Shown here: one piece after another, positions 1,774 through 63,638 of the stretch
Layout: each line of letters opens with the position of its first letter
How positions within the stretch are numbered: the first letter of the stretch is position 1
Assembly (NCBI GenBank): GCA_964016885.1
Contig: OZ024745.1
Span: 52,948,001-53,012,000 of the forward strand
Source: Eledone cirrhosa
Taxonomy: Eukaryota
DNA: 64,000 bases
Direction of reading: 5' to 3'
Notes under the pieces: model-generated
What the model saw: the letters and a program-made list of their open reading frames with translations, nothing else
Told to the model about the DNA's origin: nothing
Databases searched by the model: none
Made by a program: the position numbers and the translations under genes

Positions 1774-1901
1774 CGTTATTCCGGGTTGAATCGGAGGTAA
1801 CCACAGTAAGTAAGGTACTCAATACATAGCAGAGTATAAAAGTTTTAATATAGATGAGATTCTACAGGACTAGAACTGTTTCATTCATTAGAAATCATCA
1901 G
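1774..1901 (-). mobile_element. HHR family C insertion in (TA)n (tailed end plus hammerhead core)
   Basis: Minus strand reads CTGATGA-TTTC-TAAT-GAAT-GAAA-CAG-TTCTAGTC-CTG-TA-GAATC and is truncated just 5' of the core. Homologous to 10036-10100 and 40337-40462. Confidence 0.75.
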
Positions 1902-2484
1902 TGTATATATATATATATATATATATATATATATATATATATATATATATATATATATATATATATATATGTATATATATATATGTGTGTGTTTGGGAGT
2001 GTGTGTATGAATATGCATGTATGTACAGAAAATGAGAGAAATAATATTTACGTAAAGATATTAAGTATTGTAGAAGAATTCGTATATTTAATGTCTGTGC
2101 CTCCCACAAATGGAGGTATCATATTCCATATATGTATACGTTCATATAGATTCCTGTCCACATATTGGGATTAAAGAGTAAAACACTGTAACAGACAATA
2201 GTAAGAAATACATTAATAAATATAAATGTATGAATCAGCAGATAATTAGATAAGGATGGAATTTTGGAAGCACATCAACACATTTAACTACACACACACA
2301 CACACACACATACATATATATATATACGCTTTTACTCTTATATATATATATATATATATATATATACGTGTGTGTGTGTGTGTGTGTGTAGTTAAATATA
2401 TATATGTATATATATATATATATACATTATATATATATATATATATATATATATATATATATATATATATATATATATATACAC

Positions 2485-2578
2485 ACACTAAATTAGAAAA
2501 GATATAGTCTGCTGTGAATTCGCACATCTGTACATCTGTATGTTGGTCTGTATAAACTGTTTTCTTTGTCCAGACGTA
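2485..2578 (+). repeat. ~95-bp direct repeat, copy 1 (copy 2 at 4994-5088)
   Basis: AATTAGAAAAGATATAGTCTGCTGTGAATTCG...TGTCCA occurs twice with about 4 differences. Confidence 0.9.
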
Positions 2579-2646
2579 TATATATATATATATATATATA
2601 TATATATACAATATTAAATAAATGGAAAACTATATTTATAAAACCA

Positions 2647-2721
2647 TATTTATTTCATTATATATATTTCGGGGATATCATATTAACAATATGCTATGCC
2701 TTCATCAGACAAAATACAATA
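2647..2721 (-). ncRNA. Minimal type I hammerhead ribozyme (family B)
   Basis: TATTGTATTTTGT-CTGATGA-stem II-GAAA-T-ATAT-A-TA^ATGAAATAAATA. Stem I gives about 12 bp with one bulge. Confidence 0.75.
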
Positions 2722-4347
2722 TAAACAGTTTTATAGATAAATAGATTCGACATACCGTAATAAACACCGACTTCATTTGAAGAGGTTTACTCTAGCAGTG
2801 AAAATTTTATACAGAGAAAAAGAAAAAAGAAAAAAGAAAGACAAAACGAAGAAAAAGAAAGAAGAAAAAAAAAGAAAAAAAAAAGAAGAAAAAAGAAAAA
2901 GAGGAAATGCATGGAACAAAATAGAGAGATGGAAAGATAGATAAAGCGAAGAGCTTCATGTAAAGAAACAGAAAGAGATATATATATATAGAGAGAGAGG
3001 AGATAGAGATAGATACATATATATATAGAAAATTAGGTAGTGGGAGGTCATTTTGAGTAAGTGTATCAATGATACATTTATTTATTTATTTATTTATTTA
3101 GCTCAAGTATTAATGTAAGGGAGATATATATATATAGAGAGAAAAAAATATATAGAGAGAGGAAAAAATAGCGAGAGAAAAAAAATTTAAAAATAGCCAG
3201 ACATATTCGAGGCGTAAAAAGCCCTATGTTTTAATGTATTAGTATTTATAAAACTTACACTATATTGTAAATATCAGTATTCCTGAATGAAACAAGTATC
3301 CATAATGTGTGAAAATTAATTATCTTATGTTTAGTTTTAAAAAATTCATATGTTTATGTGACAGCTACAAACATCCATGCGAATCCAACTGATTCACTCT
3401 GCAAACTCTGAGTTACCGGAAAACATTCTCAATGTGGTATAAAAATTTGAGCGTATTATTATTCCTGTCATTACTCTACAAGATTATCTATCAAGCAGTG
3501 TTATCTTTTTATTTTTAGTTTTGTTTATAATATAATATATATTTTTATTAGTATATTGAAATCTGCTCTCTATTTCTGCTTGATAGATAATCTTGTAGAG
3601 TAATGACAGGAATAATAATACGCTCAAATTTTTATACCACATTGAGAATGTTTTCCGGTAACCTAGAGTTTGCAGAGTGAATCAGTTGGATTCGCATGGA
3701 TGTTTGTAGCTGTCACATAAACATATGAATTTTTTAAAACTAAACATAAGATAATTAATTTTCACACATTATGGATACTTGTTTCATTTAGGAATACTGA
3801 TATTTACAATATAGTGTAAGTTTTATAAATACTAATACATTAAAACATAGGGCTTTTTACGCCTCGAATATGTCTGGCTATTTTTAAATTTTTTTTCTCT
3901 CGCTATTTTTTCCTCTCTATATATTTTTTTCTCTATATATATATATATCTCCCTTACATTAATACTTGAGCTAAATAAATAAATAAATAAATAAATGTAT
4001 CATTGATACACTTACTCAAAATGACCTCCCACTACCTAATTTTCTATATATATATGTATCTATCTCTATCTCCTCTCTCTCTATATATATATATCTCTTT
4101 CTGTTTCTTTACATGAAGCTCTTCGCTTTATCTATCTTTCCATCTCTCTATTTTGTTCCATGCATTTCCTCTTTTTCTTTTTTCTTCTTTTTTTTTCTTC
4201 TTTCTTTTTCTTCGTTTTGTCTTTCTTTTTTCTTTTTTCTCTCTTTCTTTCTCTCTGTATAAAATTTTCACTGCTAGAGTAAACCTCTTCAAATGAAGTC
4301 GGTGTTTATTACGGTATGTCGAATCTATTTATCTATAAAACTGTTTA

Positions 4348-4422
4348 TATTGTATTTTGTCTGATGAAGGCATAGCATATTGTTAATATGATATCCCCAA
4401 AATATATATAATGAAATAAATA
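4348..4422 (+). ncRNA. Hammerhead copy in the right arm, G12>A (probably inactive)
   Basis: CTGATGA at 4361. CCCCAAAA replaces CCCCGAAA at 4399, consistent with CpG decay. Confidence 0.65.
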
Positions 4423-60883: not shown

Positions 60884-61967
60884 GAATCTATTATATAAGA
60901 TTATAAACGTTATCATTTACCAAAAGTATACTGTCTCATTAACACTTAGTATATCTCTCTATACCTAATTTTTTGGCAAATATGTGTATATTGTATAATA
61001 GCAAAATCATATTATTACTTTCGTATATCTCTGCATTTGGTTTTTTACATCTATATGTATAATGTATAATAACTTAATCATAATTACCGTTTCGGTTTAA
61101 CGCTATATATAGTTTGTGCAAATATAGATATATTGTACAATAACATATACATTATTTAGGTTTCATTCCTCTCATGAAGGTAGAACTAATATAGTGATTT
61201 AATATAATATAATAAATATTAATTTATTACGATAAATGCACACATATATGTATATATATATATGGCTGAAAAGCCTGCGTTAATCATTATACTTTAGACA
61301 ACGTATCTACTTGACAATAAATTTTTCGATATTTCTAACAATAAGTACTTCATAAATTTTACATACCGAAAATGATGACACTCTTATAGGTAATTTTTGT
61401 TAAAGATTACTTTTAAGGAAATATTCAACAGTTTATATTTCTCTTTCGCGGGCCTAGTTAATCCTTTAATTTGTTTTCATAAATTCAGAATTTTAGAAAT
61501 GTAACACATTTAAAAAATGTATAGAATCTACAAAATTAATAAATATAAATAACCATCAACTTTTAAAAACTTTAAAATTTGATTCTTCACCCTAAAATAA
61601 TATAAATTAAATATTTTGAAACTTAACCGCTTAGTCCTTAAGGGGAAACAATTTTTTCTCCATAAATTACTCCCCTTTATCTCTCCCTCTCTTTAATCAT
61701 CTATCAGTTGCCTTCATAACCTGTAATAAAATTATAATTCCAGAGACTTCTTCCTCGATAATCATAATTTGTAGTATCCCCCATTTTGAAATCTCTATAA
61801 CTGTTACATTAAAGCAACGTTTTTCTTACTCATACCTTCTCTATTAAATTTATTACGTTTTCACATTTTCTCATTATTAGGGTATAAATGTTGAGTTTTC
61901 TCATAGGTTAATCACTACCTTGATTAAATCTTAACCATTTAACATCTCAGGGTATGTCATGTATCAT

Positions 61968-62022
61968 AATATTTTGTCTGATGAGGACGTACGGGTATAC
62001 CTCTGAAATATGTATAATATTA
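61968..62022 (+). ncRNA. Degenerate family-B-like hammerhead at the probable PLE 3' end
   Basis: ATTTTGT-CTGATGA-GG...CCTCT-GAAA-T-ATGT-A-TA-AT; stems are weak. Confidence 0.55.
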
Positions 62023-62212
62023 ATAACTCTGGAAAATATTTTTCCGTAGAGTGGTTCCAATCTACTGTAAAACTTATTCTTTGATGTACTCATTGAATCT
62101 TGTTTAACTATTTAATATATATGTATATATATATATATATATACTGACCAACAACCGCTCTGCATAATCAGCTCCTGATTATTTACTAGATTTCTATAAG
62201 AATATAACATCA

Positions 62213-62309
62213 TTGATCTCAGTAGACAGGCGGGGTAGTTGGCCTTGATAAGCTTCAACAAAAGCGAAACATGTCATGTCGGCTTATCTCCCCTGTTTGC
62301 TGAGATCAA
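62213..62309 (+). ncRNA. Type I hammerhead with U3-A8 core variant and long stem I
   Basis: TTGATCTCAGTAGACAGG..GCC-TTGATAA-GCTT-CAACAA-AAGC-GAAA-CAT-GTC-ATG-TC^GGC..CCTGTTTGCTGAGATCAA. Confidence 0.8.
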
Positions 62310-63212
62310 AGTGAGTGAATTTGTCACTACTTTAAAACAATAGCTTACGGTCTTCAAAATGCTTTTAATTAAGCATAAAGTGTATTGCAAAATACATTAT
62401 ATATATATTGCTATTTCAGAGCTCCAATTCTAATATATATATATATATATATATATATATATATATATATATATATATATATATATATATATATATATAT
62501 ATATATATATATATTAGAGAGTGAGGTTTCTTTACAAGATGAAAAATAACAGAGGTGTCCTATTGCTGAAAATATAAGGAAAAAAGATTAACTCGAAAAT
62601 GCAACTGGAGTTTTATTTTTTTTTAAATATATATATATATTTATTTGGATCCTTTACCGGTATCGCAGTTCTTCTGCTTTTCAAAAGTAGTGTTGAGATG
62701 GAGGCTCTGTGGTTTTTCTCACATCTGGTTGGTCTTTGAATGTTACTTGTTTCATATGGAAAAAAGTGGCTCGAAACGCCAGGTTTTTAGAGAAGTAATT
62801 TGATTGCTTGGTGAATAAGTATAATAAATTTCGCGCAAGTTCGCGTTACAAAGTTCTTCAAACATATATTAGTGAAGTTTGGTTGGTTGATGCAGTCACC
62901 TGAATAAACACCAGTTTGTTTGAATTTCTTTTTACTTTAAAAAGTGGCTCACGAAGGCTTTTTTTTATAAATGTAATTTGATTGGTTATAAATGAAATTA
63001 TGACTGTCACGTGAACAAGTTTATTAAATTTCGCGCCCGTATTTGGGAATTTATTTTGTAGCCTTTTAGAGAAGTTTATGACAAACAAAAGATAATGGTC
63101 AAGAGAAATGGGATAGGGAGAATTGTCCTGGCTCAGTGAATATGGCTTGTTCGCTGGGGTGTCAGAGTTCAGACTTTCTATTGAAAGTAGAGATATGTGT
63201 GTTTATTTGTGT

Positions 63213-63638
63213 GTATACGTACATACATATATGTATACCGACGTACAGCAGTATGTATATGCATACATACATGCACACATATATATATGTACGTACGGGT
63301 TTACCGAACATTTATTATAATGTTCGGTTTGTTTGTAAACAAACAGCCCGAATTAAGCAGTACAGTGTTCGGCAACCATCGTTGACATTTTGTTCAACAC
63401 TGACAAAGGAACAATGAACTAGTTTCGAGCTTCTTAGCTGTCATCAGCATCGTATACTTTCCTGTCAGATGATTGAACGTTTGAAAGTATATACTTTCCT
63501 TATGCATATTAACGGCTGAGCAGCCTAATTTGCATATCGAGTGAGTTAGTCGGCCGGGCACACCGAAACGGATAAATGGATAAATCAGCCGTAATAAGAG
63601 TGAGAAATGAAATTTCATTGTTTCATTTTTTCCATTTA
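63213..63638 (-). mobile_element. HHR family J copy with inverted tail; HHR at 63411-63453
   Basis: ACGATG-CTGATGA-CAGCT-AAGA-AGCTC-GAAA-C-TA-G-TT^CATTGT. 63589-63638 is the reverse complement of the unit tail. Confidence 0.9.

Follow-up and report, generated by a model that had tools for sequence, protein, structure and literature searches.

What are the many short islands that lie between (TA)n tracts in the genome of the cephalopod Eledone cirrhosa, and which enzymes put them there? The question is raised by a 64,000-nucleotide (nt) stretch of contig OZ024745.1 (assembly GCA_964016885.1, positions 52,948,001 to 53,012,000 of the forward strand), here called the window, in which a first-pass annotation noted 17 hammerhead ribozyme motifs in about eight families. 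All of these islands were taken for non-autonomous ribozyme retroelements, mobilized by a TA-targeting Penelope-like element of the Naiad type. Our analysis counts 11 families in the window (A to K, letters of this analysis) and leads to a mixed answer. Very probably, the islands comprise the 5′-truncated ends of six (probably seven) coding Penelope-like elements of the Hydra clade, together with four tandem units that have no open reading frame (ORF) and are likely copied by Hydra enzymes.

The first matter is whether the motifs are hammerheads at all. The window was scanned with a structural descriptor of type I hammerheads with a strict core, and 50 dinucleotide shuffles in 500-nt blocks served as control. 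The descriptor was loosened after inspection of the window motifs (admitting a mismatch at the stem II base and a bulged stem I) and is therefore tuned; the shuffles were scored under identical rules. It recovers 12 strict-core type I hammerheads in the window and none in any of the 50 shuffles, and the stiffer initial descriptor yields four matches against a shuffle mean of 0.02. Eleven of the 17 annotated sites pass (2708−, 10041+, 10725−, 36945−, 41542−, 41577+, 42860+, 46133−, 46577−, 61978+ and 63447−). The other six are genuine family members with variant or damaged cores: U3-A8 at 62245, U4A at 20596 and 5989, a stem I mismatch at 18179, loss of the stem I 5′ arm to a TA tract at 1901, and GAAA changed to AAAA at 4361. 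Complete folds with decayed cores also occur at 40628+ and 40603−. The twelfth strict-core match (6231−), absent from the earlier list, is doubtful: its stem I pairs only with TA-like DNA, and it represents either chance or a truncated copy of some other family.

The same scan was applied to an unselected sample of 40 evenly spaced 10-kb stretches (400 kb) from 20 large contigs, picked irrespective of content. Here, 21 hammerheads are found against 0–2 across 10 shuffles, or 52 per Mb (bootstrap 25–88); a single tandem array accounts for five of the 21, and chance may account for one or two. Extrapolated to the 3.0-Gb assembly, this density corresponds to roughly 150,000 intact cores (75,000–260,000). 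At about 190 hammerheads per Mb, the window lies above the unselected sample. The density of around 50 intact cores per Mb in unselected DNA is new here. Pooling all fetched loci, mostly picked for carrying these families, gives 278 distinct hammerheads in 23 clusters, 20 of which have at least two members.

Stem covariation between copies, proposed in the first-pass annotation as a check, is seen in stem I of family A (21 C-G and 17 A-U of 42), in stem II of the B lineage (49 G-C and 15 A-U of 65) and in stem II of family H (18 U-A and 6 C-G of 24), with the caveat that a small number of subfamily changes, passed on to many copies, underlie these counts, which are not independent events. Could the motifs nevertheless be chance matches in AT-rich low-complexity DNA, or have been spread by the enzymes of long interspersed nuclear elements (LINEs)? 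The descriptor was relaxed post hoc, LINE remnants are present in the window, and among the best 150 of 207 Rfam matches there is a single hammerhead (HH9 at 62231–62301, E=0.0013, under the gathering score), the others being mostly microRNA models driven by microsatellites. Against this stand the shuffle controls in the window and in unselected DNA, the covarying stems, thousands of exact genomic copies with none for reversed patterns, the absence of poly(A) tails from the viewed copies, and a two-ended Penelope geometry described below. The shuffle controls and the insertion geometry refute both ideas, and we regard either explanation as extremely unlikely.

If the motifs are hammerheads, what carries them? 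The islands of families B, C, D, F, I and J are the 5′-truncated 3′ ends of coding Penelope-like elements. At other loci, all six extend upstream into 3′ untranslated regions (UTRs) of 0.9–1.8 kb, followed by ORFs that encode a reverse transcriptase (RT) and an endonuclease. Family J provides an example within the window: a GIY-YIG-type endonuclease end (59916–60335, with an early stop), a 1.6-kb 3′ UTR and a hammerhead core at 61978 lie in succession on the plus strand, with (TA)n on both sides. ORF and UTR are collinear at constant spacing at six loci (the window, L067, L071, L299, L300 and L301), and because spacing and UTR recur at the five other loci, 59916–62123 is read as one truncated J element. 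For family B, the RT-endonuclease ORF lies 1.6–1.8 kb upstream at seven loci, which are collinear over up to 2.6 kb at 92–96% identity. The corresponding distances are 1.45–1.8 kb at three loci for F (L285, L286 and L289), about 1.2 kb at three loci for C (L181, L191 and L283), and 0.9–1.1 kb to the endonuclease end at two loci for I (L044 and L293). For D, an endonuclease ORF is found 955 nt upstream at one locus, the UTR of which is common to two further loci. Family A is probably a 5′-truncated end of the same kind: its upstream region is long and non-tandem, and one of three extended loci (L450) has a same-strand Hydra endonuclease 2 kb upstream. With long unique upstream regions and ORFs, A, B, C, D, F, I and J differ from retrozymes, which consist of a short tandem non-coding unit.

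In the window, B forms three mirror-image insertions. The first (2609–4550) has its short end on the left and its long end on the right, with cores at 2708− (which passes the scan) and 4361+ (with the broken GAAA); the second (36847–37201) has a core at 36945− and a second arm truncated within the ribozyme; and the third (41354–41673) has cores at 41542− and 41577+. Family C is represented by two mirror-image insertions consisting of ribozyme 3′ halves (4685–4891, with GAAAC at 4804− and 4852+, and 31230–31472), by a tail fragment at 41228–41329, and by further fragments at 51747–51824 and 51849–52003. Also present is a hammerhead 3′ half resembling C at 40225–40307 (+), which ends 14 nt ahead of a TA tract and has no match at the other fetched loci. 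Two D 3′ ends on the plus strand (5700–6141, left boundary approximate, and 20556–20661) carry the U4A core CAGAAGA at 5989 and 20596, respectively. The F mirror-image insertion at 40473–40861 holds more than 3′ halves, namely the two complete folds with decayed cores (CCGTCGA at 40628+ and CTGTCGA at 40603−); a relative at 20450–20531 (+) does consist of the ribozyme 3′ half only. Family I contributes one 3′ end (42793–42952, +, core 42860). Family A contributes three: a long-tailed end at 1774–1901 (−; core 1901, stem I 5′ arm absent), a complete ribozyme at 10033–10099 (+; core 10041), and a 3′ part without the 5′ core at 40336–40462 (−).

Which Penelope clade do these elements belong to? 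An endonuclease fragment is indeed present at 59.9 kb, as first reported, and its assignment to Naiads is what changes: it is C-terminal, is of the Hydra clade judged by sequence motifs, and is part of the J copy. B, J, F and I copies have RT motifs (YRDD) ahead of the endonuclease (the C, D and A proteins were examined at the endonuclease end), and the B, J and F ORFs contain DKT, in place of DKG, and RWR motifs. The seven aligned endonucleases have a CxCx5C linker, a CxxC before the conserved E and a CxH after the N, and no CCHH; in the D copy, Y replaces the second C, and three copies are cut short. Pairwise identity among the seven is 27–52%, a divergence that explains why the UTRs of the families are unrelated. 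The endonuclease forms the last part of the ORF, with the 3′ UTR coming next, in contrast to the N-terminal CCHH endonuclease of Naiads. The Hydra families also share a (TA)n target and a hammerhead near the 3′ end (50–150 nt from it in the coding families, with variant cores in C, D and part of F), and in J the hammerhead is found 1.4–1.6 kb past the endonuclease. The protein search gave 55,910 first-look candidates, and Hydra ORF matches occupy 11.7 of the 400 unselected kb (~3%).

The idea that every island is a short ribozyme retroelement without autonomy, mobilized by a Penelope of the Naiad type, has some appeal: most copies in the window are non-coding and 60–500 nt long, four families have no ORF, and Naiads target (TA)n. 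However, six families continue upstream into coding elements, and for B, C, F, I and J the collinear ORF-bearing copies refute it. The endonuclease is C-terminal with CxCx5C and without CCHH, and Naiads are reported, in the accessible text of PMC8557442, to target (TA)n without canonical hammerheads, only remnants occurring in cephalopods. We therefore consider this explanation highly unlikely. The non-autonomous character is retained for E, G, H and K, and does not hold for B, C, D, F, I and J, nor probably for A.

In the four remaining families, E, G, H and K, tandem hammerhead units without an ORF resemble retrozymes, and, as far as sequence comparison can tell, it is likely the same Hydra enzymes that copy them into (TA)n. 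Their monomers of 316–662 nt are arranged head-to-tail with one hammerhead each. In the window, G (446-nt monomer) occurs as a head-to-tail dimer at 45820–46803 (−; cores 46133 and 46577) with a short inverted arm, and as a single unit at 63195–63636 (−; core 63447). The K unit (316-nt monomer; 62144–62432, +) has a compensated U3-A8 core, TTGATAA, at 62245, a GUC triplet and an HH9-like long stem I. Both the H unit (662-nt monomer; 17760–18536, +, core 18179) and the E unit (555-nt period; 10360–11025, −, core 10725, boundaries approximate) exceed one unit length. Segments longer than one monomer are found at 37 (G), 29 (K), 20 (H) and 9 (E) loci, and the longest ORFs starting with methionine encode 27–75 amino acids. 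Their 3′ ends touch (TA)4 at two fixed positions in 70/83 (G), 44/47 (H), 30/84 (K) and 14/35 (E) segments. Of 272 E, G, H and K occurrences, two have a Hydra ORF on the same strand no more than 3.5 kb upstream, both beyond a TA tract, in a comparison where most loci were read with 1.5-kb flanks only. At the loci viewed, the region upstream of the ribozyme is the unit's own 3′ part and never a unique UTR. The units fold as circles more stably than shuffles (z −8.2 for G, −5.0 for K, −2.4 for H and −2.5 for E), a modelled property that is compatible with circular RNA.

Family K is very young, with many copies being 100% identical. At G000:C2:207.69–207.74 Mb (L242–L256), units of 316 and 304 nt build up a tandem array that is ~50 kb long or longer. 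This array, the short flanks, and the argument for a relationship of published retrozymes to the terminal repeats of Penelope, with possible local expansion as satellites (made in the available text of preprint 10.64898/2026.07.22.740005) would fit E, G, H and K being terminal repeats of unsampled coding Penelope elements, or satellites formed at the DNA level, instead of independently mobile retrozymes. We judge this unlikely, as dispersed head-to-head insertions, fixed 3′ ends abutting (TA)n and scattered 5′ ends are marks of retrotransposition, the unit's own 3′ part precedes the ribozyme, and 270 of the 272 occurrences have no linked ORF. Separately, in one of the unselected stretches a 311-nt hammerhead unit is arrayed head-to-head (L181:8630–9990, at G000:C3:280.0 Mb).

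Several points weigh against the reading of the islands as Hydra ends and Hydra-copied tandem units. The link of D to a coding element comes from a single ORF-bearing locus. That of A is found at L450 only, with low-complexity DNA and an insertion in between, and the endonuclease near A at L448 belongs to a different element. The clade assignment rests on motifs, with agreement to Hydra-1_Obim judged visually, and not on a tree with reference proteins. A Pfam search with the endonuclease and two long ORFs returned no RT or GIY-YIG match and nothing else meaningful. Among the tandem families, the period of E differs between loci, making it the weakest case of head-to-tail organization, and neither a parent element nor a partner enzyme came to light for any of the four within flanks of mostly 1.5 kb.

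The two kinds of element share a target, and their insertions support the earlier proposal of a (TA)n target and Penelope-type mobilization. In every family, 3′ ends adjoin (TA)n at two fixed sites 30–110 nt apart, and 5′ ends are scattered. Mirror-image insertions combine one long and one short end in 87/100 cases for A, B, C, D, F and I, a count that is weakened by a few nested C pairs being included twice. For E, G, H and K, the figure is 40/47, with one long-long pair and six with an unclassified end; it comes from a redone test, the initial test of G and K having been upset by internal TA runs. If arms were independent, about half would be long/short. This long/short asymmetry, common to coding and non-coding families, is new here.

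The 5′ ends were compared with the predicted cleavage site in A, C and F, the matches of B, D and I being low-complexity and unscorable, which limits the reach of the result. Among copies not used as search centers, ends at the cleavage site occur in 5/244 (C), 0/41 (A) and 1/20 (F); instead, 101 C and 22 A ends lie within the fold just upstream of it. The possibility that reverse transcription of the 3′ cleavage product gave rise to the short copies is thus unsupported for these three families. Ends inside the fold fit an uncleaved template and stalling within the fold. In the tandem families, the two fixed 3′ ends lie 130–440 nt downstream of the predicted cleavage site and copies read back through that site, so that the template must be a multimer or a circle.

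By analogy with an anole Penelope studied in vitro, a Hydra protein, probably as a dimer, would cut both strands of a TA tract. Reverse transcription would then start at two internal RNA sites, one for each DNA end, giving two opposed arms and a 70–100-nt tail on one of them. For the coding families, the template would be uncleaved RNA on which copying often stalls in the ribozyme fold, and such stalling would account for the abundance of 3′ halves and short islands. In E, G, H and K, the template must span the cleavage site.

What, then, is the role of self-cleavage? A canonical core (CUGANGA, GAAA and NUH, with three stems) is present in most distinct copies of A (67/73), B (66/68), I (6/6), J (21/22), G (32/37), H (22/30) and E (7/8), and a U3-A8 core in 53/56 distinct K copies. 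In contrast, canonical cores are found in 0/15 distinct copies of D and 13/42 of F. Genome-wide counts of exact pattern matches, for which the reversed-pattern controls are all 0, extend this picture. Family A has 2,696 exact copies; K has 1,302 U3-A8, no canonical and one C3-A8 core; and D has 17,933 U4A against 71 canonical cores. For F, 588 CYGUCGA matches compare with 229 canonical ones, two patterns that are unequal in length and flanks. Family C, with 925 C3-A8 and two canonical cores, could be taken for dead-cored as a whole, an idea dropped since 2,774 copies carry the compensated U3-A8 pair; only a subfamily is uncompensated. Another recurrent feature is a U-U mismatch at the stem II base, seen in the unrelated families A, D and G (window positions 10048, 20603 and 46126) and in 42/47 G copies.

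Both U3-A8 and U-U at the stem II base are known working variants in the available text of PMC4209133 and PMC3088659. The latter also describes a U4C variant with lower activity that still serves a viroid, so U4A cores need not be dead. In the anole element, single C3 or G8 changes ended ribozyme cleavage and left insertion unaffected (PMC11167929, available sections). From structure and covariation, self-cleavage is predicted for the intact and U3-A8 cores, while cleavage by the D, F and minor C cores is predicted to be weak or absent. Amplified uncompensated cores occur in three of seven coding families and none of four tandem families, too few families for a test; all four retrozyme-like families retain an intact or compensated core. 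The altered cores of some very abundant families suggest that self-cutting may be unnecessary for their spread. We tentatively extend this to a proposal that we hold to be possible and somewhat doubtful: cleavage would be dispensable for the autonomous Hydra element and required only by its parasites, as the source of a circle or monomer; a single Hydra dimer would then copy this from the two ends of the TA break, with a different start site for each. Fixed U4A, U4C+A6U and C3-A8 cores were not found in the portions of PMC4209133 and PMC3088659 available, and a literature search on inactive cores and mechanism, with thin coverage of subscription journals, gave no report of amplified broken-core families. 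Such amplified families with uncompensated cores are new here.

The kinds of element themselves are not: all are already published, and the families described here are new members of two known kinds. A literature search on cephalopod retrozymes and hammerheads, again thin for subscription journals, found PMC8557442 as the sole relevant match. In the accessible parts of that paper, Craig et al. (2021) define the Hydra clade, including Hydra-1_Obim from Octopus bimaculoides with a (TA)n preference and a hammerhead, describe the tail on one end as a Penelope signature, and suggest that the hammerhead may only parasitize Penelope-like elements. The families share with Hydra-1_Obim and other Hydra elements a C-terminal endonuclease without CCHH, the CxCx5C, DKT and RW motifs, the (TA)n target, a canonical hammerhead near the 3′ end, an inverted 5′-truncated arm and a tail on one end. 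They differ in that at least six families with 27–52% endonuclease identity meet in one 64-kb window, the 3′ UTRs measure 0.9–1.8 kb (published elements are <3 kb in total in the text available), tails are 70–100 nt instead of 30–40 nt, Hydra ORFs make up ~3% of unselected DNA, and uncompensated-core families have been amplified.

Metazoan retrozymes were defined by Cervera and de la Pena (2020; PMC7229834), who propose Penelope as mobilizer. Li, Clavereau and Pollet (2026; 10.64898/2026.07.22.740005) argue that they are non-autonomous Penelope derivatives and saw cleavage in one of nine dimers tested. Cephalopods are not covered in the available text of either paper. Like the retrozymes described there, the units of E, G, H and K do not code for protein, are joined head-to-tail and contain a single type I hammerhead; further common features are a GC content of 34–39%, a mostly minimal palindromic stem III, and co-occurrence with Penelope-like elements, their proposed mobilizers. 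Unlike them, the units here insert at the same target as Hydra elements of the same genome and agree with these in mirror-image geometry and in having two fixed 3′ ends, and the K core is fixed as U3-A8.

Regarding mechanism, the accessible text of Frangieh et al. (2024; PMC11167929) reports for the anole Poseidon element PAc in vitro that catalysis is unnecessary for insertion, that uncleaved RNA is the main template, that the protein cuts and extends both strands, and that the tail reflects two internal reverse transcription starts. An AT-rich target is shared with PAc, as would be, on the mechanism proposed here, two-strand cutting and extension and two internal starts that define the tail. 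In contrast, the elements here belong to another clade, their arms almost always use different ends (for PAc, no strand difference in start site was seen in vitro), and their core changes are natural and amplified in vivo. The hammerheads themselves match those described in the available text of PMC4209133 (Cervera and de la Pena 2014), which reports massive numbers of single minimal hammerheads from truncated elements, and PMC3088659 (Perreault et al. 2011): they are type I, have a palindromic loop III and mostly occur as solitary motifs derived from truncated elements, with U3-A8 covariation (as in Schistosoma Cercyon) and a U10.1-U11.1 mismatch. Their density of ~50 per Mb can be set beside 9,000 in Xenopus tropicalis and 120,000 in the 28-Gb axolotl genome as published, as a rough comparison only, since descriptors differ. 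In Octopus vulgaris, 31 recently active Penelope-like families have been reported (PMC13282606); the main text of that paper does not contain the words ribozyme, hammerhead or Hydra, and its repeat library may contain the present families.

Other repeats are interspersed with these elements. A broken non-LTR (long terminal repeat) retrotransposon at 6400–9085 (+) has RT-like frames at 7586–8084 and 7956–9081, and its C-terminal part resembles what we take to be the restriction-like endonuclease type. A ~200-nt repeat resembling a short interspersed nuclear element is present in more than a dozen copies that are 80–93% alike, not TA-bounded and without a hammerhead (11122–11323, 13996–14199, 14436–14590, 24872–25277, 26062–26388, 28529–28746, 38772–39162, 42184–42398, 48376–48502, 50452–50651 and 59294–59554). 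The stretch at 9845–10030, which abuts an A copy, is an abundant separate repeat (2,256 first-look candidates) that elsewhere occurs without the ribozyme. At 62514–63190 lies a TA-bounded repeat, found beside K, G and C copies at 26 other loci, in which no hammerhead was recognized. Mirror-image islands without a recognized hammerhead, some of them TA-bounded, are located at 35652–36457, 39884–40018, 40899–41053 and 14722–14854, and are possibly the ends of further Penelope-like families. Lastly, 360–411 and 45509–45559 are related (83% alike) and are enclosed by stretches (1–500 and 44900–45600) that are presumably remnants of DNA transposons.

Around 50 intact cores per Mb and ~3% Hydra ORF indicate that these elements make up a large unrecognized share of the genome, to which Pfam is blind and Rfam almost blind. 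What the hammerhead does for Penelope-like elements is debated. Here, sister subfamilies that are young and abundant differ in having intact, compensated or broken cores, and non-autonomous elements insert with the same geometry as autonomous ones, which makes the need for cleavage and the copying of retrozymes by Hydra enzymes directly testable. If cleavage is indeed dispensable for the autonomous element and required only by its parasites, the genome of E. cirrhosa would amount to a natural experiment on the function of the Penelope hammerhead.

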